From: Tubulanus polymorphus | Taxonomy: Eukaryota > Animalia > Nemertea | Direction of reading: 5' to 3' | Assembly: GCF_964204645.1 (NCBI RefSeq) | Contig: NC_134032.1 | Coordinates: 4,178,175-4,242,174, forward strand | Length of the DNA stretch: 64,000 nt | In this document: positions 2,623 to 50,000 of the stretch, piece by piece | Layout: each line of letters begins with the position of its first letter | Position numbering within the stretch: position 1 is the stretch's first letter | Made by a program: the position numbers and the translations under genes | Notes under the pieces: generated by a model | The model's database searches: none | What the model was told of the DNA's origin: nothing | What the model saw: only the letters and a program-made list of their open reading frames with translations

Positions 2623-2639
2623 TTATTTTACATATTTTC

Positions 2640-2999: not shown

Positions 3000-3022
3000 A
3001 ACATATTTTTATCAAAATTTGA

Positions 3023-7490: not shown

Positions 7491-7698
7491 TTCATTTCAT
7501 TTTCATTTCATTTTCATTTCATTTTCATTTCATTTTCATTTCATTTTCATTTCATTTTCATTTCATTTTCATTTCATTTTCATTTCATTTTCATTTTATT
7601 TTCATTTCATTTTCATTTCAAATTCATTTCATTTTCATTTCATTTTCATTTCATTTTCATTTCATTTTCATTTCATTTTCATTTCATTTTCATTTCAT
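7490..7698. repeat. (TTTCA/TTTTCA)n simple repeat
   Basis: Direct reading. It produces the spurious ORF 7430-7708. Confidence 0.97.
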
Positions 7699-8228
7699 GA
7701 TATTTTGATAATTGTCTTCTATCTATATAACGTTTAACAGTTTATTTTCAAGAGAGTGCGCGATATGATCAATGAGAAAAACGCTAAAAGGCGTATTAGT
7801 CCACGCCCAGTCGCATACCAGTGTTTATCAAAATACGCTTGGAGACAGTTAGCGATAGTGTCTTACGTGAATACGTTTGCAGGCAGACTGTTATCGGATT
7901 CTAATATTGAAGGCGAACTACGTAGTGTCCGCGAAGGTTCGTCTTGCATCTCTGTTTTCAGATTTTGAATATATTTTGGTCTAAAGTCAATTCCGGCTTC
8001 GCTATTGATCCAATTCCTCATATCTTATTCGGTTAATGTCAACAAATCCGCTTGAGTGCAATCATTTGAGTGGGCTTGAAATCTATTCGGAAATACCATT
8101 GTAATTCCCGATTTATGCCCAGACTTTCTTAAACACGTCACCCGGACGTTTTAGACTCCACGATGAACCGATTATCAATTATTTCCGTAAACATCAGGAA
8201 TTCAACAAACCATGCACGTTTTACAGGA

Positions 8229-11200: not shown

Positions 11201-14200
11201 AAACCCATCACTCACACCTGCATTTTCATTCAAACAATCTCGAGATCTTGGTAATAACTGTTCTACAAGGTTAATGATCATTACATTTTGGCCGTTTTCC
11301 ACATGTAAATAGTCCGATTATAGTTCGTGTTGACGAGATTGAAAAGAAAGAAATTTCGAAACGCAAATAATCAACCTACACAATTTGATTATGCCAAACG
11401 AATGCTAAAACATTTTCATAAAAGATCCTACCTTTTTGTAATTATCAACAACCTAATAATTACCTGGTGAAATTAGCAGGGATGAGGTGCACGATTCTGA
11501 TGACATGATCGACAACGCAAACGAAAACGAAGTGGCCAGAAGTAAGTATGCCATACATTTTTCGGAGCAATTTTTCGATTTGTTAAATCTTGTTCACTCC
11601 CGCCCAGAACCTTTTGAAAAATACGCAATAATTTTGGGTTTTCTGGTTTTTTCACCTTTTTTGATGGATGATATAATACATGATTAATTAATGATTTCGT
11701 ATCTGCTGGTACAGTATTGAGGCTAAAGTGATCGGAGAACGCCGGCCTTAAAAACCGGCCCAGGTTTTTCTATATCGGTAAACGAACTTTTCTATCACCG
11801 CTTTTTTTATAGAGCTCATACCGAACTACACGGGCGCGTTTATTGGTTTTAGGAGACCGTTCAAAATGGTGAGTGTGATGAAATCTTGGACAAGCCACCT
11901 TATTTTCACTGAGACGAACAACGTCAGACTATACTTCAACAGGAAAGAACACTAACGTCCAATCAAGGGCAATAATTCAATTCATTTCAAAAATATCTTG
12001 ATCTATACGGTTATATCCATACGGATTTGGACGTACAGAGTAAACAGATAGGAAATAAAAATAAAAAACTATACAATTGCAACATATTACCGATTACAGA
12101 TGAATACACGATATGATAATGGACAGGTGCAACGCAGGTTTCCCCGCCAGATGGCGTGGCGAATACTCGGTATCAGTTAATTAGCAATGAACTTCAAATT
12201 AGATTTTTTGGCTACCGAATCCATACATTAGCATATGACCCAGCAAATATACTTTGAATTGATTTAAAGTTCAAAAATATGTAGTTTCAATAATATTTGA
12301 TCGATTTAAGAGAAAAGACCATTCGGTTTTCATTGAAATTTAGACGAAATTAAACGCAAATGACCGAGCATAACTACTATGGAACGAACCTAGTGGACCC
12401 TCGCTTACAACAAGAGCGTTGGTAGTTGGTAGTTTTGAAATAAGGATCCATAAACGTAAATGGAGTCTGCGGTGCATTTTTAGACATCTGCCATTGAAAA
12501 TTTTGCAAAACTTTGGTGACCACATTCATAACAGACCATGATAAATTGTAGGACTGAGACCTGGAAAAAAGGAGCACCCGCAGCAATTCGACCCATCGGC
12601 TGTCGTCAACCGTAAAAACGTTTTATTGCAGGCATACTCAAATTGGAATTGGGATGAACCTAACAATAGACCTGCGCCTGAAAACTGTGTGGAAATGTTT
12701 CCAAATAATGGAAGGTGGAATGACGTCGACTGCGCATACTCGAAACCCGTGATTGAATATTATTCCTGTAGTTGTCGTGACGGTTACGAATTAAGTGGTG
12801 ATAAAAAGAAATGCATCGGTACGTAGTGCGCCGTCTTCTTACTCATAACTTCTGCAGATATGAACAGATCTGCTTGACACCCCCTCAGACAATCCACTGT
12901 CGGTACCCTGCACCCCCTCAGATAGTCTGCTGTCTGTACCCTGCAACCCGTCAGACAATATGCTCGCTGTACCCTGCAACCCCTCAGATAGTCTACTGTC
13001 TGTACCCTGCAACCCCTCAGATAGTTTACTGTCTGTACCTTTCACCCCTTCAAACAATCTGCTGGCTGTACCCTGCAACCCCTCAGACAATCTGCTGTCT
13101 GTACCCTGCAACCTCTCAGACAATCTGCTTTTTGTACCCTGTACCCATTCAGATAATCTGCTATCTGTACCCTGCAAACCCTAAGACAATCTGCTGTCTG
13201 TACCCTGCAACCCCTCAGACAATCTGCTGTATGTGCCCAATAACCCCTCAGACAATCTGCTGTTTGTACCCTGTACCCATTCAGATAATCTGCTATCTGT
13301 ACCCTGCAACCCCTCAGATAATCTGCTATCTGTACCCTGCACCCTGTGTTGTAAATTGATGTTCGGTTTGCTACTATAGAATTTGATTGTAGTCTAGTTT
13401 AGCATTAGTACTGTAGGATTTGTACCTCTTTACTGAACTCCTTCATGCTTGAAAGAGCTACAGCAATTGTAAGTTATGAATTTCTAGGAATACAATAGGT
13501 TAATTTTCCTCAGCTTAAATTAAATTAATTACTTTCTATCTTTGTGGCAAACTTAAGACGCCGAGTTTGATTTAAGCTAAGTAGCTAAGTTGTGTAGATT
13601 TGACGCGGACTCGTTTCGCCTGTTCGGAACACCCTGCACCCCGTCGGACAATCTGCTGTTTGTGCCCAGCACCCCTTCTGTACCCATCTCCCAGACAATC
13701 TGCTGTCTAACATGAAATTGCTTTTTTTAGATATAAACGAATGCGCTTTAGGGCTCGACAAATGTGGTCACGTGGGAACGTGCGTCAACACTGAGGGTTC
13801 CTATCGGTGTAACTGTAGCGACGGTTATGAATTAAGCGCCGACCAGAAACGATGTGACTGTAAGTTCCATCATTCCAATCGCTCTCGTCGATTATTATTC
13901 TCATTCCTCATTCTTCTTGTTTTTCCCTCTTCCTCTTAATCTCCCTCTCCCTCCCTCTCAATCTCCCTCACCCTCCCTCTCCCTCTCAATCTCCTACTCC
14001 CTCCTTAATAAGAAAGCATTCTCAATTCTATTTTTGTTTTGCCGGTGAATATTTTACACATCCCAGTTTTACAACAAAGCTGAATAGCACTCCTAACTTC
14101 ACATTTTAATCAAAAGCACGGTGATTAACATCCTCCAGAGATTGCCACGGTACGAAACCCTGCCACACTAGACCGAGTGCGCAGTTACACGCGCAGCTTA

Positions 14201-19833: not shown

Positions 19834-20847
19834 TTATCTTTTCGATGCATTACAAATAGTAGTTAAGAGATCTTTTCTAAACTGTTCGCTACTAGCCAGA
19901 TAAATAAAACCATTCAAAACATGATTCGCCCTATATAGTAGAGTTGCACCCACGTGGCCAAAAAGTACAAACCAAGCGTATGAGCCGAATAGTCTACAAT
20001 TAGGGACATAATATGTGGTGGTTTCCTCCAACGAGCCTTTCTCCAGAACTAACGTGTCAAATAGACACATCGGGAAAGTAAAACACAGGAACGCTAACGC
20101 TGTTGTAACGACTAAAGCTGTGATCTTATTCGACGCTCCTTGTTTTTTATAGGATGCAGTACCTTTGGCGACAGGCAGTTTAGCTGATTTTCGAACTGAT
20201 GAAATTATTATCCAATTAGCTACGGAGATAACGACAAAAGGAACATAAAGGGATATAGTATTTGTAGTTGCGTAGTAAGCAAAAAGTACATATTTTTCTA
20301 CAATTTGACAGTTTGTCCAGATTCTATATTTAATTGACTCAAACTGTGAACACCAGCCGAGATTCTGCACCGTCAATAAAACTGCCGTAACGAATAGCAG
20401 TTTGCAGCTGCGTTTAATCGTACAGATAGACACTGCTTGTAGGGGTTTAGGCACAGCTTTAGCGCGATCTATAGTCATCAACACTAGAAACCATATAGCG
20501 ATCTGACTTGGCCCGATCTTGTGGAACTGCTTCAAAACGCATTCGACATCGTTGAACGGGTGTCCGAAGTAGTTCATCAGATATTGAGTTTCAACCGATA
20601 CAATAGCGTACAGATCGGCGACACCGATGACCAACATGTGGAAATAACTGGTACTAGACGCCGAGCGTTTAAAAGTGCCCAAAAGTACGATACCAAAGTT
20701 AACGCATCCAACAGCGGGAAAAACGAACGCCAAATACCAACGCATGTCTCGACTGATATCGGCCGCGTCGTTAAACAATCTGCGTAAACGTTTACGAGCT
20801 TGCCTACGAGCCAACTTACTGGACATAAGTGAATCCGTTATATTCAT
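19834..20847 (-). CDS. Intronless class A GPCR, peptide-receptor (FMRFamide/srw-like) type, 337 aa
   Basis: Seven hydrophobic segments, TM3 MTIDR, TM2 VADL, TM5 YVPF, TM6 F.C.TFP and a TM7 NGFIY variant of NPxxY. Confidence 0.85.
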   Translation of the reverse strand: MNITDSLMSSKLARRQARKRLRRLFNDAADISRDMRWYLAFVFPAVGCVNFGIVLLGTFKRSASSTSYFHMLVIGVADLYAIVSVETQYLMNYFGHPFNDVECVLKQFHKIGPSQIAIWFLVLMTIDRAKAVPKPLQAVSICTIKRSCKLLFVTAVLLTVQNLGWCSQFESIKYRIWTNCQIVEKYVLFAYYATTNTISLYVPFVVISVANWIIISSVRKSAKLPVAKGTASYKKQGASNKITALVVTTALAFLCFTFPMCLFDTLVLEKGSLEETTTYYVPNCRLFGSYAWFVLFGHVGATLLYRANHVLNGFIYLASSEQFRKDLLTTICNASKR

Positions 20848-21744
20848 CGTGGTATTGTTGATAAGTGACGCACGTCACAAAATCCTCAAATAGCACGGAA
20901 GAGTTTAAAACCATGGCGGAAAACCGACACTGCTCCCAGCAAAGATACTAACGATAATGATAATTTCCTTCTTACATAGCACTTTGAATATAAAATCATT
21001 ACAGCGCTTTATACCAAATTGGAAAGCATGTCGATCAGAATGAACTGCCATCTCATAATGTTATTGAACTGAACATGTCTCCTCGCATATCAGAAAATCA
21101 ATTCCGATTTACTACAAGGGATATAATAGAAATAATTTAATATTCAGTCTTTTATATTACAATCACAATTTCATTTGCAGGATGTATTACTTACAGCTAA
21201 TTGAAAATCAACTCTCACAAACCTCACACAATTTAATTAGATAGGCCTTATAGCAAGCGTTTGTGAATGTGTAAAATATAAACGCAACTATATTGAATAT
21301 CATTATTCTTTGTCCAAGAATTCATCATAAATTGTGAAAGTAAAACTTCTGAACTGGTTGGAAAATATATTCATCAATTATATACGGGGACACGCATGTC
21401 GAAATATGATCAGCTCATTAGAACCACGTATTTATAATCAAATCCATAAGAGAAACAAGTGTTGTGATTACTTTATAGTACAGCCCTATCAATGATATTA
21501 GTCATAATTAGAAAAATAGATAAAATGCATGTACGAAGATCTAGTTATTGAGATCCAGAGAGAATATCCAGATTAAGCTATGGCACTGACATGGGACATG
21601 CAACCATACGGACCTGATCCGACTGACGAGAGACAACCACAATAAACAACGTGCATTGGAACTAAAGTATACAGAAATCAGTATCAGTTATACTAGGAAG
21701 AAACATGGTGAAATAGCATCACATTATCCGGTTTGCTCGACTAC

Positions 21745-23830: not shown

Positions 23831-26800
23831 TCAAATAACGTTTTCCTAGGAAACAGAGTTAATATTGGTTTCGGTGTTTTGAGCTAGTATGTATACATAT
23901 ATAGTAATCTGTTTCACTTATAAAATTGGCTGCCCGGTCTTGCAGGGCTACACGTAATAATAATTAGTATACCTTTTAGAATAATGTAGATTTAAAAACA
24001 ACATTGAATCGGCAGCTTCTATTCACTACGCCTAATTTACAACTTGATCGTCGAGTTATTTACCTAAGGTGAAGGTAACTTTTTCCTTCATGGAAGTCGG
24101 TATTGAAATAAGTAACACATCTTCCGAGATATAATGAGAGGTCATCTGTTGTTTTATTGGACTTTTTCACTACTGAGGGATGCGTGTTTACTAAAAACTA
24201 CGAGATGTTGAACCGATTTAGTGGGATTCAATAATGGTAGAGGTGAACAAAATAGTAAAATCTTGAACGAGTAACCGAATCGGGAACAAGTTATACGTAT
24301 TTCTTAATGGAAGGTATCATTTGAACAAGTAACCGAATCAAGAATAAGAAACGAGTAACTTACTTCACTTGGGTTTTGTTTTGGTGACAAATCGCGGATT
24401 TATACGAGCAATTCACGAAGCTGAAATAGGAAAAAACAAATCGGTGATATTTTGACTGATTTTCAAAAATATTCTATTGCTCATAAAGGCTAGTAAACGT
24501 TAGTAGAGAATATCACAGTCCTACAGTTAGAAACAAGTTTTATTGGTACCACATTCAAAATTGTAGTCGATAGCTATCAGGGTGTGATTTGAATGATGAT
24601 AGATGTTTACAGAATGGTGACAGAAAGACCACTAGTTGTACGACTTATCGATGCGAAACTAGAAATGGATACATCATCCACTGATTAATTTCAACAGATA
24701 TATGAAACATGTTACTGAGGGTCTTACTGTTGATTACTGATTAATTTGAACAGAAATATGACGTATGTTACTGAGGCACTTACTGTTGATCATTTTCTTT
24801 CATATTCCAATGAAGTTCATGAATATAGTCAATTTGTTACTGATAACACTATTCAGCCGTTGAGACTGTTCATAAGAAATAAAAACCCCGTAATATCACT
24901 GAAACTATACGATATACGTAGGTCTAGCAATAACTATCGCCTAAACCTGTCAATGACACCAACGGTTTCGATGTTTTTCAAACTTTGTAGCGGCTCGAAT
25001 TAAACTTTATAGATAAATTCAAACCTTTCTTTTGTCCATTTTTATAAGCCGGACATTCTAATATATCTGAATGCTACAAGTTTCAGCTTTCAATGTTCTG
25101 TCGCCCACTGATTAAATTATTCATACTGTTTATCAATTCAGTTTGCATGGCTCTGATACAAATTGGTTGGAATTAGAATAAATGCGAGTGTTTCAGTTAT
25201 TGCAAAGATAACGGACTCACAGAACTGCTGCATGTCATGAAAAGAATGCACCGTAGAACAGACAGCGACTGGAGCTAGCAGGGACAAATACCTCAGATAG
25301 ATCTTTTCCCTTGGTCTTATTGATTTGAATGCGGAATAAAATTGAATTTTCTGAAATTTGCTCAATTAATAAAAATGGATTTGCTGTCTAACCTTGTTCA
25401 ATAAAGTAAAATTGAATTGAATTGGATTTGTTTTTTTTGCAGAATAAAATTTCATTGAATTTGTAGTTTGAGCACATGGCTAATTAGCATATCAAGGTCA
25501 TCCACCCGATTTGAGAAAAAGCTATTTTTCCCGGAATTCTGTGGTGCTAATAAAAATATTCCTCCCAGAAACCAAATCAACTAAAGATTTCACAGAAATC
25601 GATATTGAAATATAATTTTAGATCATAAAATGAAACCCAGAATTAAAACGGTAGACAATACCGCGGGTTCACGTGAACACCTGCTGATCTCTACGGCTAA
25701 GCCAATCATAGAGGAGTCTTTGCTTTCTGATTGGCGTTTTTAAACAGATATTTTTGCGATCAGATTTTTCAGATCAGAAAAAGCTCATACAAATTTTAAC
25801 GAGGCCTTCTTTCATGGATGATAATGCTTAAATGAATGATTTGTATGAATATATGCCCAGTTGCACTGTCAAAGAGCCTCATCTGGAAACCATGTCATTC
25901 AAATTTGCTCCATTTGTAAAGTAATAGTCTCAGCCTACGGCCTTCCTTTATTGCACACTTGCACACTCACCCTGCCCCCTTTTTGGTATAATAATGTAAC
26001 TTTATTGTTTATGTCCGGCATGTGCATTTTGGTTTCGTTCTTTTTGTAAATTTTCCTAAAATGTGCATTCGTGCGCGGTGGCAAATCATTATGTAATGTA
26101 TATAATTTCATAAAGGTAATAAACTTATGCTATAAAAAACGAACTGATATATACGGAACTGACTCTGTCAACACTCGTAAAAATACGTCAATGTTACATA
26201 AAAAATCTTTTGATTTCTAGTTCTTCCTTTATGTTCTTTATAAAAACTTTACTGAGATTCAGTATTTTCTTGTTTACTGGAAGTTTTCTAAGAACTCGCT
26301 CTGGTGAGCTTTGAGATCATATTGTAAGCAGGACAGACAATCTTTTATTTGTTACAAGAAAAGTCTACTTTTCTTATCTTTTTTTAGATTCCGAAATCAT
26401 AAATCCGAAGCAACGTCACATAGTGACTGGTCGGTCGAGATTTTGTTTAAATCAAAGTATCTATTTGTAGGTGTAGACCTTGCCGAGACATCACTATCGA
26501 GTCCGCGCATGCGCTATGGAAGTTGAAATTGTTTTGAAGGATTCAATACCATTATTTGTTAAAGGGTAACTGACACTTTTTTTTTATTTCAAAATTCGAT
26601 AAGTTCTATCGAACTAAGGAAGACTTTGAAATAGTTCTGTTCAAAAATGTGTAGTTTCCGCGAAAATCGTGATTTTGTAAGACAACTTTTGACCTCATTT
26701 CGTTGTATACATCGCGTTAGAAATCATCGGCAATTTCCGTCGATCTCCGGCGCTGTGACGTCAATAAAGTGAGCACTGAAAATTTTCTTCTATGAGATAA

Positions 26801-26845
26801 CGTTGCGTTTTTACTACTCGGCGTGTTTTCACTGCTTTTTCTCAA

Positions 26846-29435
26846 ATGCCAAATCGTTGTGTTTGCTTTGGGTGCGATTATTCGGATAGGGGTATATTTC
26901 TTTTTCCGAAGAATCCTGTTCTTCGAGAAAAATGGGCTTCTTTTGTAGGTTTAAAGCGATTGAATTGGAGCGGCCCAACGTCGAATAGCGTCGTGTGTTA
27001 CCGGCATTTTACCAACGATGATTTCGTTAATAAAATGCAGTATGATTTCACAATTTGCAAAGAGGTAAGTTTCATTCAGTCATCTTAACATTTATTCGAG
27101 ACATGGTTTGAGAATAATTATTGTATGGGCTTGAAAATCACTGTTAAAAGGGTCGCATTTTCAAGTCCAATTCAAATCAATAAAATTTATTTTTTGCACG
27201 CGCGGTATCCAATTCATAATTTTTTATGTCAAAATGCCGTTTAACTTTTGTTTGCTAAGCGTGATTGTAAAACCATGCCTTCTAGGTCAGCTTACATCGT
27301 GTGACAATAGAAACATCTTTTCATTGAACTACTACTATAGGCCACAGTGCATTGGCCATCGTACAATAGGCTTTTATTGTCATTGTGAGTGCCTTACTTC
27401 ACTCACTAACTACAATAACAAAATGAATATTTCACGAGCCTTGTGAATTAACGGTTGCCTTTTGCTTGAAATAGATTGTTGCTGAAACAAGGAGCCGTGC
27501 CATCGATCCACACTGTGATAGAAACCCCTGAATCTACATCTCAACCAGAGGATTTCTTCTCGCCACCACGAAAGCCTGGACGAAAAGTGTTTGAGAAGAG
27601 GGAGAGACGGCGAGTCATTGCTGAGACTGAGAGCCAGGTTTTGCATAATCTTCAACCAAATTTGGTTGAAGATTATGCAAAACCTGGTGAAGATGACGGC
27701 GGGGAAGTGTATGCGGAACCCGGTATCAAATCAGAGTTCGAGGCGACAAGAGAATTTGCTGTGCAGGCTGAACCGGATTGTAAATCTCGAGGTAGGATTT
27801 TCATGATGGTATGGTGTATCATTGTCATTCAGTTTTGAATATATCACTGTAATCATTGAATTTCATGTTATTTAATGATAATTTTTTCTAGGGATGCAAA
27901 CGCTGAAAGAAACTGCACAGGTGAAGACCAAAATTGTGTACCGCATCAAACCTAAGATTATCTACAGAACGCCATTTAAGGCTCAGCGTTCAGTTGGAAT
28001 CCAGGAAAATGCATTGAGTGAGTATTCTTTATTCAGTCTATATCGTATTATGGTACGGCTTGTATTATGGGGTTTTTTATGATATCATCTATTCTCCCTA
28101 TCTATTTAATCCTACTACTGTGATTGGTCTGTTTTAGCCCGAAACATTGGTATTCAATGTAAGCGACCTGCTGAAGAACTTACAAATACCTCAAAAGCCA
28201 TTTGTATTGGAGAAGAATCAGATTTAGGGAGTGACAGTGAAGATGATGACTATCATCCAGATTCGGCAGAAGAGTCAGAGATGGACAGTGACTCTGAGGA
28301 TGATTCTGAAGGCAGAGTTATGTTTGAAGAAATGAGGTTAGTAAAGTATAATATTTTAATCATGAATGAACGTTGTTAAAAGTAAGTTCAAAAATTCTTT
28401 GTGTAGAATTTACATATCACTCACGGAATCAAAAATGAGACGAAATACTAATTTTTCATTTCAAGGTATAACTAAGAAACTAGAAATAATGTCAAGGAAA
28501 AAGGAATGTGAAGAAATCAAGGATTGGATAAAGTCAATAAAATGTCATTTGTACTGGTGCGCTGCATCATCATCACCCAGGGATAAAGAAGGCATCAGTA
28601 AAAAATGGTCATCAGCAGTCAAACACATCCAAGACAATCATGAAGACTGCAGCCATGAACCCATAACATCAGAAAAGAAATGGCTTTATCCAGGTAAGAT
28701 ATTATCTATTGCAACTACTGAATCAGAAATTATATCTAATTTCATGTGATGAAACATTTGATGTACTATTTACAGGATCTTTGGTTGGTGATTCTATGCA
28801 AAAATATCTGACGAATACACGGGTTATAAATAAAGTGAAGATGATGTCACCATACGGCCAGACCAGTAAACTGGAGTGTCTTCACAGTTTATTCAATCAT
28901 TTTGCCCCGAAGATGATTCAGTTTTCTTACAATGGAATGACAAGCAGGTAAGCAAAGTATATAACAATTGAGTGATTTCTATTTTTTCATACATATGTCC
29001 CTGCTAAGACTTATATCAATGTCTTATGTCTTCTCTTAGGTTACAAATAGCTGCCCTACATTTCAATGAGAATAGTGACAGAATACAAGGCACAAAGATT
29101 GATGGGACAAAAAAATATAGCATTGTCTATCCAAAATACAAGGACACCCACACATTACGAAAACTACTCACTGATGCCACTTATGGTGAATATTAAAGTC
29201 ATTAACTAAACTTATGTAAATAATTCATTACCAAACACATTGTTGGCTAACAGTGTTTTTTATTTCAGAATATGTCGACATTTGCTGGAACAAGATACTC
29301 GAGGACGTGGAAGAAGCAGATAGGCCGAGGAAAATAATCACAGTACCACCAAATCTCACATCAAACAAAGAAAAAATCACCAAAGAGGAAGCCATCGCAA
29401 TGCACAGGACAAGATTCAAAAAAACTAATAGATGA
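26846..29435 (+). pseudogene. Kolobok THAP-domain transposase, spliced, catalytic core missing
   Basis: THAP domain (MPNRCVCFGC..FP..W..VC..HF..AVPSI). C-terminal exons read WIKSIKCHLYWCAASS, QTSKLECLHSLFNHFAPK and RLQIAALHFNEN. The exon 1/2 phases mismatch and no central DDE exons are present. Confidence 0.8.
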
Positions 29436-30125
29436 TTGAATGGTAAGTCTCTTGACATTTGTATTGAAGGTATAATTTCATTTAAAATTGTAATACATGC
29501 ACATGAAAACATGACAATTATATTGATTTTCTTAAAAAATACATTCTTTTTAGGTCTGCGGAAAAAATGATGACCCGAAGTGATGATTTAATTCGAAAAA
29601 TAATGTACGAAGAAATATATTTGAAATTTGGCAGTTCAAGATACCGAGTGCGTTTTATTTCAACATCAGGAATCATGATATATCTTGTATTCGTTTTATA
29701 ATTCAACCTAAAATATTTTTCATGTCTTTTTCAGGTGATAAAGACAAAATATCTACATTTGCATGGGAAGATTAATGGTGAAACTACAAGTCTAAGTGAA
29801 AGTTGTAGACACCAGTTCACTCAATAAATGATCTGTAGAAAATTGATAGGAAACTGAAAATAAAATTATTGATCTGCTTAAGCATAACAAAACTGCTCCT
29901 TACTTGAACAATTAATTGCGATCAGATGTTTAAATTAGAACTCAATGGATTGAAAGCAAAACGTTTTATACATTATAAATATGCAATAAAATTTATATTT
30001 TATATCTAAGCGATGTCATTGTTTTATTAAAATATCTGTAAGAAAAGCACAAGTTAAGAAGAATATATAAACATCGTTAGAATTTTTAAGTTGAATTCTT
30101 CTATTTTAATTCATTATGGTCCATC

Positions 30126-30744
30126 TGTGACAGTGGTATTATTGAGTTTCAACAGCAGTCTCAATTCATAGGCAGTGCTGCCATCTTCTAACGATATCAT
30201 AAACTATTCCGCATTCATTATCCAACTCATTCAACAGTGCCATCTTTCGTGATAAAACTTTCGAACTTTGTTCCAGCGTCAGCTTTCATATAACTTTTTG
30301 TACTGAGATTGAACCTTAGGAAAATTACGACTAATGCGCGTCAGTTGCTCGTAAGTATTTGCTTCTGCGAGCAACGACTGCCGCTGAAGAACATAATTCA
30401 AAGTTAATGTTACATTTTTCTGGGAAGCTGTCACGTATAATGTCCTTTTGTAATTATTTCGGTTGAATAATGATATTTTTATGGGCAACGCTGTTGCGCT
30501 AACGACAAATTAACGGGCTTTGGCAATGTCGTTCGCTAATGAGATGGGTTGGAGAATTGACTATATATACTGGGGTTTTTTGGACCGTGGGGGAGACCGC
30601 TAGAAATTTTTAGATCGTTGAGATCAGTTCGTGAAATAAAAGTAATTTTGAAGACAGGAACTCTGTGTGTTGCGACTCGTTTATTCTTGGACGTTTGTTA
30701 ACATTCTATCACTCAAGTGGAATTCAAAGATCCCGATAGTGACA
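30126..30744 (+). repeat. Ty3/gypsy 5' LTR (start at 30126, or alternatively at TGTCAC 30429)
   Basis: TGT...ACA ends, a TATA-like TATATATA near 30562, AATAAA near 30635, and a PBS immediately after. Confidence 0.75.
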
Positions 30745-30746
30745 AA

Positions 30747-30756
30747 TGGTGGAGAA
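30747..30756 (+). promoter_or_regulatory. Primer-binding site, tRNA-Ala-like
   Basis: TGGTGGAGAA lies two bases after the LTR-terminal CA and is complementary to the tRNA-Ala 3' end (..TTCTCCACCA). Confidence 0.75.
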
Positions 30757-31039
30757 CCTGGCGGGCATTTTACTTGAGTGAGGTATCGAGCTATTTAACA
30801 AAACCAACGGAAACAAAGATAATTCACTGGAACAATACACGAAGTAGGAACTCGAGAAACGCACGGAAAATGGATTTTGGTAAATATTGAACAATACTTG
30901 TTATTTAATTTTGATTTCGTCGTGTGCGTAGAACAATTTTCTGTGGATAGACCGAATATTTTGCTGTCTCCTCCGGTCTATCGTACATTTAATTGACTTA
31001 ATATTGAAGAACCTAGAAATTATTTGATTGAATTTGTGT

Positions 31040-32005
31040 ATGCCGGTCGAAACGAGGTCTGGAATGGACCGCGCTTTGGCAGATAGACTAGCTGAAATGA
31101 CAGCCAAAATTGACGATAAGCCAATGGGCATGACTCGTCTACAACCGCCACAGTTTACCGGTACGGTAAGCGAAGACGCTAATATTTGGTGGCGGCGGTT
31201 CACCCAATATTCTACTTTCATGGGCTGGACCAATGAGAAGAAACTTAAAGCAGTGGGGCTGTTTTTAGATGGACTTGCTTCGGCTTGGTATTGGACCGTG
31301 GTCGAGGCAAGCAAGTCAAAAGACGCAACCGTTAAGACAACGGCGAATAGTATCTTATCAGATATTGACAACTTTGAAAGGGAATTCAAAAAGAAATTCG
31401 ATTCTGGATCAATGAAATGGGTGCGTGAGCAAAGTTTAATGAACAGAAAACAATTACCGGGGGAATCGTTGGACGTCTATCTTCAAGACATCCAAATACG
31501 TTCGGCGGCTCTTGAAAAGAACGATCATGATTTAATGGTCCTATTTATCAATGGCTTGGCGGACAATTTGAGAGCGTTTGTCGTATCTAGATCACCAACA
31601 ACTATGGACGAAGCCGAACAATACGCGCGCTTGTATGAATCCGTGTTGGCGCTGCAGGCGAAACCGCCTCCAATTGCCGGCATCATATCATCCACTGAGA
31701 ACCGAAATGAAATTTCGGATCTCAGGGATGAAATCAGGAATTTAAGCCGGGAAGTCTCGAGACTTCAGGTACAGGTCCGGAGGCAGGATAATAACCTGCC
31801 GCCACGAAACTTCAGATCTGCTTCCGGATCTGTAGTTTGTGGTAGATGCAATCGAGTTGGGCATCACGAACGTAATTGTTTTAGGCAGAACGGTAGTTAT
31901 CGGCCGGATAGACGGTTTAATAATTCTAACAATAATTTCGGTAATCGTTCCAACGATAATCCTAATAGATTCAGGCCGGGAAACAACCCCAGGCCCGGAT
32001 TTTAG
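31040..32005 (+). CDS. gag: Ty3/gypsy Gag (capsid, coiled coil, CCHC knuckle), intact, 321 aa
   Basis: PPQFTG..SED...W..RF, L.GLA..WY, RKQLPGESLDVY, FINGL...LR, and the knuckle CGRCNRVGHHERNC. Confidence 0.93.
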   Translation: MPVETRSGMDRALADRLAEMTAKIDDKPMGMTRLQPPQFTGTVSEDANIWWRRFTQYSTFMGWTNEKKLKAVGLFLDGLASAWYWTVVEASKSKDATVKTTANSILSDIDNFEREFKKKFDSGSMKWVREQSLMNRKQLPGESLDVYLQDIQIRSAALEKNDHDLMVLFINGLADNLRAFVVSRSPTTMDEAEQYARLYESVLALQAKPPPIAGIISSTENRNEISDLRDEIRNLSREVSRLQVQVRRQDNNLPPRNFRSASGSVVCGRCNRVGHHERNCFRQNGSYRPDRRFNNSNNNFGNRSNDNPNRFRPGNNPRPGF

Positions 32006-32021
32006 GGGATGATTCCGAGCC
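31978..32021 (+). promoter_or_regulatory. -1 programmed ribosomal frameshift signal
   Basis: In-frame slippery heptamer G GGA AAC (31978-31984), a 7-nt spacer, then stem GGCCCGGA (31992-31999) / TCCGAGCC (32014-32021). Confidence 0.7.
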
Positions 32022-32135
32022 AAAACATTCGTTTACAAAAGGTTGCCTAATATATTCATCAGAGATTTTACTGTTTTAATTCCTGCTTTGTTTCTCGTGT
32101 TGTTGTTCCTATTCTTTGTACGTGAGTCTGTCACG

Positions 32136-32608
32136 ATGTCGTTAATCGTTCATCTTCCACGCGTGAATGGAGAATTCGAGGCAGGCATAGCAGCCGGCGT
32201 CGATCCCCGTCTCGCCGACACTGACAAGCTCCCGATACATAACGCTGGAGATCACCAGGAAGCAAAGTCCATCGCCTGTGCATGGCTCTACCACAAGTAT
32301 CGAGCATCAGCAAGCGATGAGGTACTTGCAGTTTTGATGGGAGGAGTCATAGGTGGTCTGGACCTAGGGCTTTTCTCTAATGCGGATGGAGACGTGCTTG
32401 TGTCCAACCATGCTACTATATCGGCAACCGCACCAGAGCTGGAGACGTTTGTTAAGGATAAAGTTAGCATGGACGCTGTCCGTAAAGGAGTTACTTTGGC
32501 CATAGCTACAAAGGCAACTTGGTGGGCCATGAACCACCACACAGGCCAGGGCCGAGCGCAGGGCTACGCGAGAAAAGTGATGAGCACCTTTTTTGGAGAA
32601 TCCAACGT
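32136..32608 (+). CDS. Endogenous viral element: qinvirus-like nucleoprotein, 3'-truncated
   Basis: ATG at 32136, with sequence visibly more GC-rich than the host. The motif ATKATWWAMNHHTGQG..QGYARKV resembles my recollection of Qinviridae segment-2 proteins. The ORF is cut by the inverted terminal repeat and reads through to a stop at 32891. Confidence 0.65.
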
Positions 32609-32664
32609 AGATGGCAGCACTGCCTATGAATTGAGACTGCTGTTGAAACTCAATAATACCACTG

Positions 32665-33611
32665 TCACACATCAATCGACACATTACGAAATCCTTTATA
32701 TACATGGTCCTCCTCATAACCGTCCTCAGGGAAATGTGCGCGGATGCACGAAACGACACAAGCAGGCAAAATTCTCCTATTTTCCTTGCCCAAATATCCC
32801 CAACACCACCGAACAAATGATCTGTATGCTACATGTCTTAATTTCGCATTTGCTGGCCCTTCAAAACTTTTCCGTCCGTACTGCCGTTTAAATTCGGTCC
32901 ACATCAGCTGCAGGACCCAAGGGTTCAAACAGATCGAAGCGAAAGCTGCTGTGTCCGTCATGCAGGTCTCTTCATTTTGTCCGGACTCCTCCCAAACCCA
33001 TTCCAGTCTTCTTTTCACGACATCAATCTCCATACAGCACACACACTCTTGCTCCGTCTCTAAGATCTGACAGTGTCCACATTGGCACCTAAAAAGATTA
33101 TCCATAAAAATATTTTTAAGGTATGGATATAGGTATCTACTTGTTGTAAGCCTATGCTGATGCAATGCAGTGCAAGAATAGTCCAGCAGTGCCAGCACAA
33201 CGACGTTGAATCGCACTGAGCTTTTGAAACGAACATGATAAGATTCTCTCAACTTCGCCAACAAAGCTCAAAAACCCATAATTAAATCTACGGCTTAATG
33301 AATCTTAAAATATATATTTTTAAGTTAATTGTTATATGAACATACCACTGATTCAGATTATCCAGCTCCAAACGGTTTATTCGGCCTTCGTCGTCGTCTC
33401 CCTCTGCCTCCGGTCTGGGTCCATCGCCGTTTCGCTTCGGTTCTGCCTCTGGTTCGTATAAATACGGCCCGATCATTAATTCCTCTTCGTCACTTGTTTC
33501 CTGCCATTCAAAATCACTAAGCGATTTATCTGAATTTGATGCCGAAGTGGCATTAAATTCAGATGAATCGCTCCCATTGTCCGATTCTCTATTCATTTCT
33601 ATAGACGCCAT
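32665..33611 (-). CDS. Kolobok accessory protein KolX (P2X7 C-terminal ballast-like), two exons
   Basis: Exons 33611-33346 and 33088-32670. Motifs: PYLYEP, WCQCGHC...ECVCC.E, F..ICLN, LRHVAYRSFVRWCWGYLGK.NRRILPACVVSCIRAHFP, YKGF. The native end (GP*) lies at 30114-30121, beyond the insertion. Confidence 0.88.
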
Positions 33612-34877
33612 TATTGAGTCGCTGCCTTTAATGACGTAGTTCTATAAATAGCCCGCAGTACACGTGTTTTTCCGGAACGATGTAAACAAAACGAGGCGCG
33701 CGAAAATCAAAATCATCAAATATCATTATAAATTGAAATTTTTTCCGATCTTTCAAATTGTCAATCTCAATAGTATACTATAATGAATCATTTTATTCCA
33801 AAAGTAGAAAATTCTTGAAAAAGTGTCAGTTACCCTTTAATTTGTCCCTTGTTCAATGACATGCGCGCAGCGCACGTTATACCTTAAAATTGGACCGAGT
33901 CATTTAAAACTCTGCCAACTTGTAAATTCTACAGGAAGAACACTTTTAGATCGATTGTTATACTGCCATCTTGTTGAAAGCAATTTTCGCGAATTTGTAC
34001 TTTTTGCTCGACGCAAATTATTTTTTTTTGTGCAATAGAATATGAATAAATGAATGAACCGCAAATATTTCAGCTTTTCAACATCGATGGTTTTGCGTCA
34101 CCGTTTCCATCGTTTGCTATTCAGAGGTAACACTTTTCATCGTCGAATATATTTGTATAGGGACAGGGTGGACCTATCCAAGGTTTTTGATTACTGCTTA
34201 GCTGCGGAAGGGCACCTTTGTCATAGAAAATTTTGGGGCTCTGAGAGGCAATCTGAATCAATTTGGGGCATCATATCCCTTGTCTGCATCCACTAAATAT
34301 GACATTTTGACATGTTAAAGACAAATCATTGATAAAAAAAGAAGTTTACCCATTTTCGACTGTTCACATTTGTAATTTTAAAATCTATTCTACCTGAACT
34401 TCAAAAATAAAAGGACACTTCTTATCTTCAATCATGAGTACCGTTCAAGCGGTAGTAGCGGTAGGCTGGATCCGTCACTGAGGTATTATCCCCGACCCTT
34501 GACTCCCATTCAGTCTGTTACTTGACGAATTTTGTTTTGTAATGCTAAGATTTCATATGGGGAAGTACCCGGTGTAGGTTATGATTCTTGCGAGAAAAGT
34601 GATCGCTGATGACATCTATATCAACTGCTGCTAATAAAGCGAATTCATCCTGTCAAATCAGAATTGATTTTGCTCTTTGCTGGCCGCGTGTCATTCGATC
34701 GAATCAGATTTGCACAGCAGGATAAATTTTACGATTTGTTAAAAACGACGGACAAGAAAATACTGTCCCTGATTTTCTATTATTATTACTAGTACGGTAT
34801 TTCTATTCTATTATTACTAGTATTTCTACTTATGCATACAAATCTATATAGTTCTATCTATTTGATTCACTTGTATT

Positions 34878-34925: not shown

Positions 34926-35726
34926 CATTTTTACTCATTAGAAAATGAGGTTTTCAACGTTACCGCTTTTATGGTTGTTCGGATACTTGAACTCTTTACC
35001 CATGATCAATTTTCTAATACCGCGTGAGTATCAGTTTCACTTTGAGTTTTGACCATTCGGATCAGTTTTACAAGTTGAGCTTTTCATGTTTTCCATTTGA
35101 CAACCGTAAACCTTTGTAAGTACCTAATAACCCAGATCACGACGAACTAAGACGCACTTAAATATCCCTCCAGGTGATATGAGTCAATACTGAGATATTG
35201 AATTCGGTTTCTAATGACTATTGAAAATATGATCATCACGTAGTTATAATTGTTGTCTCACTCGGCTGAGATTCTAACAGATGGTTTATATGGATCTTTA
35301 ATCAATTAAAACACCGAATATTAATGCAATCATCAGCGCACAGGGCGCGGATGATTAGTCAGAAGTCCCGCGGTATTCGATGAGAGAGGAGATCAGTTAG
35401 GAGACCGAAAGCAAGTCTAACTTATCAAATTTCGGAGCCGCCACGCATCCAGACTGTTGTAGCTATAATGAAATCAAACTCAACGATTGATTTTCTCATA
35501 AAAGGTGCGTCAATTTTTTCCACTGTAAAAACCGTTATTTATGGTGGATGGCATGTAAAAAAAAATGTTTACGTTTGCTGGTTTTTGTTCTCACCCGAGC
35601 ATTCAAAACTTTTTGGATTTCTCACACGAGAATTTGAAGATAATGTGGTTTTCTCGCGCGAGCTTTCGAAACTGCGTTTTCTAAAAAAGAAAACATAAAC
35701 GTTTTGTAATTTAGTAAATGATATCA

Positions 35727-36655
35727 TTTTTTGACGCCTTATAAAACGTTACCATTATGAAACCTAAACAATGATAACCATTCAGCGTCATTTTACAAAC
35801 GACAACCGTAAATCGATGTGCAAAACGTCACAGGTTTATGTGTACACATACAAGCTATTTGGCAAAATATTATTGATACAGATGTAGAATGGCTCCCTGG
35901 GATTATATAATGACCTCTATTTGAACGTCGAAATGTTATATCGTATTGAATATCATGAGAAGACGTATTGTAATAGTAAAGGATGTATGATTATATCAGG
36001 GGCGGCAGGGATAAATAGAAATGATAAGTTAATCGGATTATTCGGTTAAATGGCGGATGTATACACGATTTGGAAGTCTGATATAAAAGTCAGACCCTGA
36101 CATGGGGATGCTAGTGGAATGACGAAGCTATCTACGATCTGAGTTGGGCCGGCGTGAATTTCATCGGCGGCTACAAGCGGTCTATATAAAAACGTGTAAA
36201 CATATAATTTCAATATTCAAATGTTTTAGAAAATATGTTCGATATAAGACGAATGCAGGTTTCATGAGATTAGCAATTTATAATAGCATAGCTGTCATAT
36301 ACGGCTCCGCATCCACTGATGGCATGTGTATAAGGTGACAATTAAATTCAATACTTTATTGATCCTTATTACATTGAAATTCCGGGATAAAATTCCAAAA
36401 ATCAATACATTTACAAATTTTAAAATAAGGAAATACAAGACACACGGGTAATTCATACAGAATAACATGAATAAGTTAATTATATGACAATGTCTACTTC
36501 AACCCAGACTCAAGTCTAGGATATCAAGTGACAGCCAGACCGGGCCCCAGGACCGGGCTGGCTGGCTACACGATATGCTCAAAGTCATGATGAAGCAGAC
36601 ATCAGAAGAGCTCTTTCTTCAACCATGGAGGCAATGAAGTTTCAGACCAGCTTAG
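35727..36655 (+). repeat. Dispersed repeat related to 1-611
   Basis: Contains both blocks found at 1-445 (direct) and 444-611 (inverted). Confidence 0.85.
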
Positions 36656-43089: not shown

Positions 43090-44377
43090 TGAGATGGCAA
43101 TAAATGAAAGAATAATACAACTGCAGTAAAGTTGTTTTTGACAAAATTCCATAAAGTCTACCCATTATACAAATGAACCGTAATAGTTTAGTACAGATGC
43201 CATTCATTTGTGACTTCCAAGTAAGCTGGTCGTCAACTTGAACGCCTAGAAATTTTGTTGTCGAAACTTGTGATATAGACATATTGTTGATTTTGATAGA
43301 AATTGAGTGTTTATGTTTAGCACGGCTGAAAAATATGAAATGAATCAAATTCAATGAAAGCCTGTTTGCCCGAAAACAGATATTCAGTTTGTGTAGTTCT
43401 GTATTAACTATCATAGTTAACTCGTTAAAATATTGATATGAGAAGTGAATACACTGGCATCATCAGCAAACATGATAAAATTAAAAACGCTTGATGCGTT
43501 TACAAGGTCATTTATATATAATAAGAAAAGGATCGGCACCAAAATAGAACCTTGGGGCACACCACATAATACATGATAGGTAGTGGTAGTAGTCTCTTTA
43601 AAAAGAACAGTCGGAAAACGGTTTGAAAGATAATTTCTAAACCAGAGTAATGGCGTACCTCTGATGCCATAATGGCAAAGTTTTGACAATAAAATTTCAT
43701 GATTCACTCTATCAAATGCACGCGAAAGATCTAGAAATATTCCTATAGTAGATTTGCCATTGTCTAAATTATTGATGATTTTATCTATGATAACAGTAAT
43801 TGCCATGTTGGTGGAATGGTCTTTCCTAAATCCAAATTGACATGGAGATAGCATTTTATACTTGTCGAAAAAACTTTTTTGTAAACTACTTTTTCTAAGA
43901 TCTTGGAAATACATGGTATTGATATTGTTTAGGTCTGTAGTTTGAAAAATGTGAAACATCTCCCGATTTGAACAAATGTAATATCTTTGATATTTTGAAG
44001 CATTCAGGTACTTGCCCATTAATCAAACTTAGATTTAAAATATGAGATAACGGCAGAGATATAGCGTCAATTACTCTCTTGAGGATCTTTTGATTGATAC
44101 CATCATGACCAGTGTTATTACTATTTTTAAATTTTGAAACAATATTTTTAATTTCTAAAGAATCTGTGAGAGAGAAAAAGATATCATTTTGTTGTGGCGG
44201 ACCCAGAAAAGAGAAAAATGTTAGTAGGTAAAATATCATTGGCTAAATTTGGACCCGCTTGTGCAAAACACTTATTAAATTCATCGGCTATACTAACATT
44301 ATTTTTGTACATCACACCATTCTGTTCAAAACATGCGAAAATTTAGAATTTGACGATGTTATATTAATAAGCTCATT
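43090..44377 (-). mobile_element. L2/CR1-group LINE reverse transcriptase fragment, frameshifted
   Basis: NYRP, QFGFR, FLDLSRAFD.VNH, GVPQGSIL.P.LF..YINDL, FADD and KFLGV across ORFs 43895-44239, 43417-44019 and 43037-43414. Confidence 0.9.
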
Positions 44378-47020: not shown

Positions 47021-50000
47021 ATGCCTAAAAGGAAAAGAAGAGCTGGTAGCTTTCAGCCGAAGAAGGTAAGACCCTCTTTTCATAGGCAAATGTTAATCTT
47101 CTAGTAAGAAGTATGTAGGCCTTTTTTCCGAGTAAAAAATTCATTAAACTGTTCATCACATGTGTTAGCTGCGCAATATTTTGGTGCCTGATTTTGGTAT
47201 TTTATCAGAAAAAACCATATCAGTAAATCATAAACCAGTTGCTTAGAGGGTGTGTAACTGACCAGTGTCGTATCATCCCTGGTTCTTGTTGAGATAATTA
47301 TAAGCTATTGAATTGAATTGAACTCATTAGAAAATTCTACGAACGTATAGTGAATGAATTTTTTTTCTATTTTCAGAAGGTGGAGGTGGTTGGAGTTCCC
47401 TCAGCCCTAACTGGACAAAACAGAGATGAAAAAAGGATCAATGGAAAAAAATTATGAAAAATCTCAATATACACAATATACATGAAACCTCATCGAAAAT
47501 GAAAGCTGACTCATCTATTCAACCAATTTCGAGTATGATTTCGTGTAGAGATTGTGATGGCAATTTTGGTAACAGTGAGTCATGTTTAAGTGCTGAGAAT
47601 ATGAGATGTTCATCAATTCATGGAAATTTCCACCAGGGTCATCCAAAATACGGTATTCATTCAGGTAAGCAATGTGTAACAAATGCATTAGCTGCAATGA
47701 TTCATGCATCAAATAAAGCTGTATGCCTCATGATATTGATTCAGTATTGAATATTGGAAATGATTTATACGCAACATTGACTAATATGAATACAATAACA
47801 AATATGTATTTATTGATCAGTGAGCTACCAACTGCTGTTGAGATTGGAAATTCCATTTATAATGTGACTGTTGGATCCCCTCAAGTTGCTATATCTGAAT
47901 TATCTGATGAAATGAGAGCTGGAAATTTTGGAATTATCAGTGAACTACATGAATGTTTGCACAATAATCTGCTTAATTACGACACATGCTTTATAACATT
48001 TGCTGGAAATACAAATACACGTGTTTTAAAACAGGATGACATGTACTGGGTATTTGATTCACATTCGAGAGATGCATCAGGAATGATGACCGCTGATGGA
48101 CATGCTGTATTAGTAAGGTACTCTTGTGTTAATTGTATTGTCAAACATTGTCAGAATCTTGCAGCTTCAATGAATCAGAGGCAACCAATACAGTATGAAA
48201 TTACAGTGGCTTCTATCAACCATGAAATTGAAACTACTGTAGAGAATAGCATTATCGAAACAACGACTACATACTCTCCAAACTACCAACAAACAAGTAG
48301 TGAAGATGAACTGCCCTATACAAACCCAAAAGTAGATGAATGCGATGTAATTGTTACTAGTGAATCCGTGCAGCATGATGATTTAATTTACAACCCACTA
48401 GAAAAAGGTCAGTGCAAAACATTATGCTCTATTCTAGGTATTCATTGTCGACCCTCAACTCTCGGATATGAATGTATGCCCAAATATGATGGACAACTCT
48501 ACTCTCCATGTAATACGCAGAAAATTAAAGGCGATGGAAGCTGTTTTTTTCGGGCAATTTCATATTCAATCTGTGGAACTGAGCAATATCATCGGGCTAT
48601 ACTCACCGAAGTTTTAAAGCACATGCGGCAGAATTCCGACAAATTCCAACCACATCTGAGAAATCCACAACTTACTATAAATGAGTATATTGATGAATCC
48701 CGTATGAAATATACAGGTACTTGGGTGACAGAGGTTGAAATTCTTGCAACAGCTGATTTACTGCATGCTGATATATATACATTTGTAGGCAATGGTTGGT
48801 TACGATTCGCTGGTTCTACTTTCAGTGCACCAAATCGTGTGTGTGAATTAAATGGCAACATTTATTTGAAAAATTGCAGAGGTGTACACTATGAAGTTGT
48901 GTCATGTGTGAAACAATCTGAGGAATGTATTTGCTCTTGGTGTGGCAAGCGACGAAATACTGAAAAAACGGATGATAAAAAAGCCCTGAAAAGGCAGTAT
49001 AATTATCAAAGATATCATGAAGATGAAGATTACAAACAGCACAAACAGAAATTAGCATGTATGAAATCAAAAAATGACGAGGCCTATCGTTTAAATCAAA
49101 ACCAGCAGAGGCAAATCAGATACAATGATGATGACTCGTCTTATCGTAGAACGAAGATGTCTAGTACTCTTAGAAGATACTATAATGATATCAATTATAA
49201 GCAAAAGGTAAATAAGCGAACATCAGAGAAATACAAAAGTGACGTTGACTTCAGAAATAAAGCTAAGCTTTGTAGTATTCAGAAATACAAAAGTGATGAG
49301 CAACATCGAGCACAACTAAGAACTAACAGCATCGAGAAATATCATAATGATGAACAGCATCAAGCCCAAGTTAAATCTTACAGCATTGCAAAATACCAAA
49401 ATGATGAACAGCATCGACGCCAAGTTAAATCTTACAGCATTGAAAAATACCAAAATGATGAACAGCATCGAGCCAAGTTAAATGTTACAGCATTGAAAAA
49501 TACCAAAATGATGAACAGCATCGAGGCCAAGTTAAATCTTACAGCATTGAAAAATACCAAAATGATGAACAGCATCGAGCCCAAGTTAAATCTTACAGCA
49601 TTGAAAAATACCAAAATGATGAACAGCATCGAGGCCATGTTAAATCTTACAGCATTGAAAAATACCAAAATGATGAACAGCATCGACGCCAAGTTAAATC
49701 TTACAGCATTGAAAAATACCAAAATCATGAACAGCATCAAGCCCAAGTTAGATTTAACAGCATTGAAAAATACCGAAATGATGAACAGCATCGAGCCCAA
49801 GTTAAAACATTCAGTGTTGAAAAGTATCAAACCAACATGCAACATCGTGATAAAATGAAAAGACTAAGCATCAACAAGTATGCAGGTGATCCTAAAATCA
49901 AGGAAATGGTTGTTGCTTCCACAAGATCACGTCGTGAAAATGAAAAATTGAAAAAGAAAGACATCAACTATGTGATCAGTGAATTTCGACGTGTATCTAA

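Follow-up and report, generated by a model that had tools for sequence, protein, structure and literature searches.

Both the capture of viral sequences by LTR retrotransposons and EVEs of qinviruses are already known. In the LCMV-IAP recombinants (Geuking et al., 2009), as outlined in a review (PMC3205384), a fragment of LCMV was reverse-transcribed and integrated with an LTR element; a negative/ambisense RNA virus and an LTR element are combined there as at the locus described here, but those recombinants were somatic and experimental, whereas ours is inherited and natural. In Aedes, CFAV EVEs and virus/Ty3-gypsy hybrid DNA also contain viral fragments flanked by LTR and gag sequences and polymorphic between genomes, and a copy-choice origin was proposed for the EVEs (PMC6797480; bioRxiv 10.1101/2020.04.02.022509). 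Unlike ours, they derive from a positive-strand flavivirus and lie in piRNA clusters, with piRNAs shown, and the available text of these sources gives no inverted U3 stub or duplication. The nodavirus EVE eBxnv-1 of Bursaphelenchus, single-copy and strain-polymorphic, is likewise a capture by an LTR element (Bel/Pao); according to the available part of that paper (PMC5177903), it has two direct LTRs, a primer site, a polypurine tract and pol remnants but no gag, whereas the present insertion has gag and an inverted stub and no 3' LTR. Pao/Bel elements with a chuvirus glycoprotein similarly hold a structural gene of a negative-strand virus; as far as the available text goes, those genes are embedded within the elements and may serve as env, in contrast to our truncated insertion, which cannot retrotranspose (10.1101/2020.04.02.022509). 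Finally, reported qinvirus EVEs in arthropods include an ant RdRp fragment (PMC6540820) and, in the accessible portion of another report, a table entry (PMC6955108). Compared with the RdRp fragment, the locus described here involves the N gene, represents a lineage with no more than 41% identity to any sequence found, and has a legible insertion mechanism.

The window analysed is a 64,000-nt stretch of Tubulanus polymorphus DNA. Positions 30126-32669 form a single 2.5-kb insertion consisting of an LTR, a primer site, gag, 586 nt of foreign sequence and an inverted copy of the LTR start (Table 1), so that the front half of an LTR retrotransposon is joined to approximately the first third of a qinvirus-type nucleoprotein gene. 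A preliminary description had recognized such a chimera, and its observations were reproduced: the LTR, the primer site, the open gag, the ATG at 32136, 157 stop-free codons and the quoted motif (..GYARKV) in the product were all found. The inverted LTR stub is not mentioned in that description; the CATC duplication, the exact gag/foreign junction and the surrounding Kolobok transposon are further additions.

Table 1. Features of the insertion and of its host transposon (positions within the window).
Feature	Position	Strand	Evidence
Kolobok (Kol0-type) DNA transposon hosting the insertion, between TTAA duplications	26563..33836		terminal inverted repeats; ORF domains
Target-site duplication, left copy (CATC)	30122..30125		empty-site joint 30121->32670, 4 letters fit both sides in X1, X2, X6
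LTR, 619 bp, TG...CA; TATA-like 30562, AATAAA 30635	30126..30744	+	read loose ends at both boundaries; motifs
Primer-binding-site-like sequence, TGG at 30747, 2 nt past LTR	30747..30764	+	sequence
gag ORF, 321 codons from first ATG, open, one CCHC knuckle	31040..32005	+	ORF and domain scan
Last 17 nt common to parent element	32006..32022	+	parent diverges behind 32022
T-rich foreign leader, 113 nt, putative viral 5' untranslated region	32023..32135	+	origin suggested by position
Fragment of a qinvirus-type segment-2 (nucleoprotein) gene: 5' part with native start, 157 codons, 3' side cut	32136..32608	+	homology
Inverted exact copy of first 61 nt of LTR (second U3 end)	32609..32669	-	61/61 identical
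Target-site duplication, right copy (CATC)	32670..32673		sequence and empty-site reads

The retrotransposon part has features of Ty3/gypsy elements, namely a TG...CA LTR followed by a primer-binding site, and a gag with a capsid domain and a zinc knuckle. Read loose ends before 30126 (83 X6 reads) share a purine tract as their consensus, as upstream of a 3' LTR, which places such a tract directly before the U3 start in the parent element, while those behind 30744 (52 reads) have mixed flanks. The tRNA-Ala named in the preliminary description is a candidate primer; no tRNA genes were found in the window. In a domain scan of gag, run from the second ATG (31064), PF03732 was just above the cut-off of 24.1 (24.6 bits, E 3e-5) and PF19259 was weak and below it (E 0.015); PDB sequences gave no match to gag. 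No pol was found within the insert, which bears out the reported lack of protease, RT and integrase. The parent sequence diverges at the gag/foreign junction, 32022|32023, in X1, X2, X5, X6 (65 reads) and X3, and extends about 2.7 kb beyond it in the X2 and X3 contigs; we assume that it carries pol and integrase. The viral segment is thus not a normal internal region of the parent element.

The foreign ORF is GC-richer than gag (52% vs 46%), as originally noted, and is stop-free over its 157 codons from the ATG, while none of 2000 shuffles was. Its product had 169 matches at E<=1e-3 among 1.84 billion proteins, including the segment-2 protein of Wuhan insect virus 15 (phmmer E 2.6e-12, 33-37% identity; pairwise 33% over 160) and Shahe qinvirus-like virus 1 (E 1.6e-6); Wenzhou qinvirus-like virus 2 was matched by tblastn. 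Named Qinviridae proteins made up three of the 30 matches looked up, a count not to be read as a rate, the third look-up set having been chosen by length and match to virus records. Homology to the Qinviridae (Yingvirus) segment-2 protein begins at the native start, and the same motif is present in both. The best relative is at most 41% identical. In a Pfam scan of 29 matches, 27 had no family above the cut-off; match P0028 contains DUF7869 outside the aligned part, and match P0137, a bacterial surface protein, is likely false. Word-index searches with the fragment gave no match, a profile search gave 14 unnamed Logan proteins, and Pfam, PDB sequences and Atlas contained no usable match to the foreign protein. 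In a tree of 45 rows, built from the window's N fragment, two virus records and 42 of the 44 best motif-bearing matches, the window protein had no supported placement. These comparisons support assignment of the 157-aa ORF as the N-terminus of a Qinviridae segment-2 protein. It is cut at 157 of about 370-470 aa, before conserved downstream motifs; the 3' junction falls in a variable loop, where protein conservation gave no information on microhomology. No nucleotide relative of the 113-nt leader was found. Position 32023 had been considered as the 5' end of the viral RNA; this was dropped, the leaders of two virus records being 223 and 229 nt long.

Predicted structures point, indirectly, to the same fold as in qinvirus segment-2 proteins. 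The fragment's own model is poor (pLDDT 51; best E 0.95 in its fold search), and a model of the homologue P0014 (pLDDT 91.6), 38% identical to the window protein, was used as the Foldseek query. Ranks 1-5 and 7 were named qinviruses or qin-like viruses (E 5e-21 to 7e-13, TMq 0.69-0.85), followed by a yue-like protein (E 2e-5). Among 48161 chains of solved structures, ranks 1-10 were all Mononegavirales nucleoproteins, with Z only 4.6-6.5, rmsd 5.6-7.5 and 186-265 aligned positions; in Foldseek against PDB the best E was only 0.15. The named Qinviridae homologues and the fold of P0014 uphold the segment-2 assignment, which had been proposed from the motif.

Both termini of the insertion are U3 starts of the LTR, identical over 61/61 nt, and loose ends of 163 X6 reads before 32609 run on as ordinary LTR. 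The chance of equal local 4-mers such as the CATC duplication is 0.006. At the empty site exactly 2548 nt are missing in 34 X6 reads and in the X1 and X2 contigs. The locus thus combines a virus/LTR-element join, a short duplication and an empty site with no poly(A), as in LTR-mediated non-retroviral EVEs; the duplication, the empty site, the parent junction at 32022 and the viral homology all argue for the originally suggested capture by an LTR retrotransposon. One might suppose instead that host repeats were joined to contaminant sequence in assembly, as repeats lie on all flanks and no single record listed spans the whole insert. Such an artefact is extremely improbable, given the exact duplication with its matching empty site and the presence of the viral part, at low but continuous depth, in raw DNA reads of an independent study, with no loose end at the inner junctions among the rows listed. 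An RNA virus gene is not known to have a DNA form otherwise.

Coverage differs along the insertion. In X6 the viral part has depth 7-11, about one seventh of that of gag (54-87). X1 contig depths are 58 for the viral part, 232 for gag and 125 for the outer flank, and are not to be read as copy numbers; the X1 contig runs 30 letters beyond each of the inner junctions, where the bridging rule asks for 31. Within the viral part, X2 and X3 have a contig only over 32200-32485, and X5 (depth 3-5) yielded gag pieces and no viral part. X7 and X8 gave no sequence of the region, which does not prove its absence there, and no RNA data set was among those in which the sequence was located. The outer junctions were not singled out in any read table. 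Since the DNA is present in samples of two studies, the insertion is inherited. As for the claim that it was almost unmutated, the best relative, at 41% identity, is too distant to serve as a measure. Only the uninterrupted reading frame and the 61-nt ends, which match exactly, speak for youth, and allele differences exist (32111 in X1; 31237 in 80/80 X6 reads). The allele differences give the locus some age, and so would suit a history in which a complete element came first and afterwards acquired the viral piece and the inverted stub from an older EVE at another site, through recombination or conversion. This is very unlikely, as a U3 end in inverted orientation must then have taken the place of the right LTR precisely at the duplication without any loss of target DNA, and no second viral variant was seen in the X6 reads.

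The insertion site is a Kolobok transposon with Kol0 features: TTAA duplication, RR...YY termini and KolX with a P2X7 ballast domain. Its terminal repeats are perfect, and its ORFs encode THAP on the plus strand (E 1e-9) and KolX/P2RX7_C on the minus strand (PF20478, E 2e-14), the latter ending at the insertion site; in the reads the element is multi-copy and polymorphic. As cargo of this element the insert might conceivably move, and both its frames are open, so the preliminary description had also offered a small mobile family with two capsid-type genes. We consider this scarcely credible: neither a direct 3' LTR nor a polypurine tract was found in this copy, whose right end holds only the inverted 61-nt stub, the N gene is truncated, and the viral part is far less covered than gag. 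Lacking the 3' LTR and polypurine tract, the insertion is a dead-end EVE. Its effect today, if any, would most readily be at the RNA level, with LTR-driven sense RNA and antisense RNA over the viral piece from KolX read-through; this prediction is tentative, and KolX transcripts could stop short at an AATAAA on the minus strand (33376). The gag + truncated-N transcript, piRNA source and dominant-negative protein of the preliminary description are candidate roles.

From the anatomy, duplication, empty site, parent junction and viral origin we infer a non-mobile EVE, probably made in one round of reverse transcription within a gypsy-type particle into which viral N mRNA would have been packaged, and probably inserted by the element's integrase. 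First, plus-strand DNA primed at the polypurine tract would copy 61 nt of U3. Second, its 3' end would shift to viral plus-sense RNA, and 586 nt would be copied in reverse, past the start codon and on into the leader. Third, it would shift to retrotransposon RNA close behind the stop codon of gag; from there gag, the primer site, U5 and R would be copied. Fourth, normal plus-strand strong-stop DNA would anneal via R-U5, and both strands would be completed. Finally, the U3 end would serve as the integrase attachment site on both sides, resulting in germ-line insertion into a Kolobok copy with a 4-bp duplication. Followed along a single strand from its right end, the insert consists of plus-sense U3, antisense viral RNA and antisense gag. 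Plus-strand capture requires this order, which speaks in its favour. According to the accessible parts of the respective papers, in Ty3 priming at the polypurine tract is repeated, displaced plus strands accumulate in particles, and transfer is completed via R-U5 pairing (PMC5371799); LTR-element/virus hybrids arise without sequence homology (PMC6797480); and in a LINE-1 case cDNA of a negative-strand virus had mRNA polarity (PMC4038843). No strong hairpin is predicted at the 61-nt switch point (-5.6 kcal/mol).

The route is deduced from one end product, and two other histories yield an identical sequence. In one, the U3 ends of two separate cDNAs were integrated at one target and their resected inner ends were repair-joined with viral cDNA as filler. 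The two outward U3 ends and the 4-bp duplication are accounted for equally, and the viral piece would lie in the observed orientation with a chance of one in two under either model; however, the viral cDNA would have to be free, two more joins would be needed and one of the molecules would have to be resected down to 61 nt. The right junction shows no evident filler or base scrambling, and the reading frame of N is undisturbed, which makes this unlikely. In the other, the plus strand moves from the end of gag to viral genomic (minus) RNA and then to a second plus-strand DNA, at a point 61 nt from the 5' end of that molecule; the abundance of displaced plus strands in Ty3 particles, as given in the available text of PMC5371799, would favour it. 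We regard it as quite unlikely: nucleoprotein coats the genomic RNA of negative-strand viruses, and a long flap would be left on the product for repair. No description of an inverted-U3 architecture was found in the open-access main texts searched (supplements may hold such junctions), and the words 'inversion' and 'inverted' do not occur in PMC12657518, on aberrant HIV strand transfers. The double-U3 signature is, on this search, the new part of the finding.

An inherited N fragment made by the animal's own retrotransposon is direct evidence of qin-like RNA in its germ-line cells. In the available portion of a 2023 paper, a trypanosomatid is the only unambiguous qinvirus host, and qinviruses from animal samples may infect the microbiota (PMC10496375); the insertion would mark Tubulanus polymorphus as a host of a virus family with mostly unknown hosts. 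Inheritance and viral identity are supported; the novelty of the host finding is tempered by the arthropod qinvirus EVEs reported earlier. Most non-retroviral EVEs are too decayed to reveal their entry route. Here the two attachment ends, the duplication, the empty site and the junction with the parent are all preserved, so that the route is testable and its scar searchable in other genomes. It is possible, though doubtful at present, that plus-strand capture serves LTR retrotransposons as a general and so far unrecognised way of writing RNA viruses into germ lines: integrase would accept the resulting DNA with its two U3 ends, and the scar, LTR-gag-virus-inverted U3 stub with a 4-bp duplication, would be missed by LTR finders that rely on direct repeats. 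Here it would have recorded infection of this animal by a new qin-like lineage, and its landing at a convergent transposon gene end may provide antisense viral RNA with no piRNA cluster involved.

The open reading frame that begins at 32136 runs for 157 codons without a stop (stop-free in none of 2000 shuffles), its GC content being 52% versus 46% in gag. A phmmer search with its product, the window protein, against 1.84 billion representatives returned 169 matches at E<=1e-3, 69 of them at E<=1e-10 (best match: E 4e-23, 41% identity); among the best 150 of the 169, 77 are 350-500 aa long and 95 carry the NHH-G motif. The window protein aligns to the N-termini of its homologues, and a profile of 78 of them, built with the window protein left out, scores it at 172 bits (profile positions 5-166 of 419) and has no second match among 1046 window frames. 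Three of 30 looked-up homologues are named: Wuhan insect virus 15 and Shahe qinvirus-like virus 1, both classified in Qinviridae, genus Yingvirus, and Wenzhou qinvirus-like virus 2; the rest are one hypothetical protein of an ant genome and 26 unnamed proteins on contigs of 0.9-6.5 kb. The pairwise alignment with Wuhan insect virus 15 gives 33% over 160 columns, motif included.

The structure model of the window fragment itself was poor, and the fold search from it was not significant. The model of the homologue P0014 (pLDDT 91.6) matches qinvirus segment-2 proteins (E 5e-21 to 7e-13), and its ten best solved-structure matches are all Mononegavirales nucleoproteins, but with Z of only 4.6-6.5. 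The preliminary description had assigned the motif to qinvirus segment 2, which proves right because of the sequence, profile and P0014 fold matches. Judging by the nucleoprotein (N) piece, the captured gene stems from a distantly related qin-like virus, a putative member of a family whose membership rests on RdRp; a tree with the window protein gave it no placement. By the matches of model m6b1d48232dcb (ranks 1-10, Z 4.6-6.5), the 'hypothetical' proteins encoded by qinvirus segment 2 may share a fold with Mononegavirales nucleoproteins; no Pfam family for these proteins was found.

Features of the insert, its host transposon and the rest of the window
Feature	Position	Strand	Basis or content
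LTR	30126-30744	+	sequence; both boundaries fixed by loose read ends
Primer-binding-site-like sequence	starts 30747	+	sequence
gag	31040-32005	+	ORF scan
Further element bases between gag and foreign part, 17 nt	32006-32022	+	
Foreign sequence, 586 nt	32023-32608	+	
Inverted copy of the first 61 nt of the LTR	32609-32669	-	61/61 positions exact
DNA transposon hosting the insert	26563-33836		perfect terminal repeats within TTAA duplications; THAP and P2RX7_C frames
Helitron2/Helentron-like element	47717-55260	+	OTU, Rep, PIF1 helicase, endonuclease; interrupted by two stops
Polinton-like fragmented frames	1877-6889	-	protein-primed DNA polymerase B, endonuclease VII
Rhodopsin-family receptor ORF, intronless	19834-20874	-	
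LINE-like reverse-transcriptase fragment	43417-44022	-	
Tandem arrays	7431-7760, 12779-13405, 49206-49905		units of 11, 33 and 54 nt
Shared repeat	1-615 and 35722-36655		

The LTR, the intact gag and the foreign ORF in place of pol, as noted in the preliminary description, are all seen in 30126-32669, and a search of the frames of the insert found no pol. CATC flanks the insert on either side as a 4-bp duplication (chance agreement of two random local 4-mers, 0.006). The insert lies between the two convergent genes of a transposon with the terminal repeats, TTAA and THAP plus P2RX7_C frames that are Kolobok Kol0 hallmarks (PMC9587614), and hits the final codons of KolX, its minus-strand P2RX7_C frame, altering the last two residues only. 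The Kolobok copy (26559-33840) is itself polymorphic, its left flank being fused straight to 33837 in a contig of run X2; behind 33840, reads of run X6 carry many differing flanks. The transposase region contains a 54-nt perfect palindrome (27634-27687). Introns, the rhodopsin-family receptor gene and the transposons indicate that the DNA comes from an animal.

Sequencing runs were compared over 28600-34200, with tables that do not single out the outer junctions; the stretch is present wholly or partly in five of ten listed runs, all from one organism and none recorded as RNA. An empty site, a 2548-nt skip with four letters compatible with both sides, occurs in X1, X2 and X6 (34 reads with 25 starts in X6). 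The retrotransposon that supplied LTR and gag diverges from the window behind 32022 in X1, X2, X3, X5 and X6 (65 X6 reads), which locates the junction sought near 32020-32135 in the preliminary description, with two contigs extending it by about 2.7 kb. One X1 contig spans 31993-32638, 30 letters beyond each inner junction; the X2 and X3 contigs over the viral part are confined to 32200-32485. Since X1 may be related to the assembly source, independent support comes from X6, raw DNA reads of a study different from that of X1-X4. Its depth is 7-11 over the entire viral part versus 54-87 in gag and about 150-170 in the LTR; no variant was found in its reads of the viral part, nor any loose end at either inner junction among the rows listed. 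X1 differs from the window at 32111 and 80 of 80 X6 reads at 31237; therefore, more than one allele exists. We infer that the insertion is inherited and low in copy number, probably present at a single locus, and that it is recent without being brand new.

The inverted LTR stub is the feature that reveals most. The U3 start of an LTR is the end to which integrase attaches; as it occupies both termini of the insert inside a clean 4-bp duplication, the simplest reading is a single integration of DNA with two U3 ends. The proposed capture by an LTR retrotransposon stands, and the insert is very probably a real integrase-type qinvirus capture. The bottom strand, starting at the right terminus of the insert, has 61 nt of plus-sense U3, followed by the viral sequence in antisense and, likewise in antisense, by gag, the primer site and the LTR. 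This order is expected if a polypurine-tract-primed strand, after 61 nt of U3, took the plus-sense RNA of the virus as its template and next that of the element, whereupon pairing with normal plus-strand strong-stop DNA would complete the product. In other LTR copies a purine tract immediately precedes the LTR start, as loose read ends show. Repeated tract priming, displaced plus strands accumulating in particles and R-U5-paired transfer, the ingredients of such a route, are described for Ty3 (PMC5371799). Integration of two molecules plus repair, or template switches on the other strand, would yield the same end product; switching of the tract-primed strand from viral to element RNA seems a reasonably probable course.

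LTR elements are known to capture non-retroviral RNA (PMC3205384, PMC6797480, PMC5177903, 10.1101/2020.04.02.022509); searches of an open-access library found no description of the inverted-U3 form. Endogenous viral elements (EVEs) of qinviruses have been reported in arthropods (PMC6540820, PMC6955108), and the host question of Qinviridae is still open (PMC10496375; family context, PMC6932829). P0011 (KAM0726700.1), an uninterrupted 373-aa qinvirus-type N homologue annotated as 'hypothetical protein' on a 15-Mb contig of the ant Formica fusca, is probably another N EVE. P0028 is N-like over about its first 147 residues, up to the NHH motif, followed by DUF7869, and may be a further case of a truncated N, here joined to a gene of a mobile element. 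The split or fragmentary N-like frames on two contigs of one metagenome (L003:374-1468 and L004:1227-1834) may be EVEs from the genome of a eukaryote that was sampled.

Because the 3' LTR and polypurine tract are missing, the insert, as sequenced, cannot retrotranspose normally, and the mobile family with two capsid-type genes suggested earlier is not supported; the insert could move solely as Kolobok cargo. A functional or dominant-negative N protein appears unlikely, since the frame sits behind the gag stop and extends through about 94 non-viral codons, to 32891. No AATAAA occurs between 30635 and 34045 on the plus strand or between the KolX stop and 30680 on the minus strand, where the first ATTAAA (32075) lies beyond the viral coding part. 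Because this signal is missing on both strands across these spans, predicted LTR sense RNA and antisense KolX read-through would both cover the viral piece, making it a candidate source of small RNAs.
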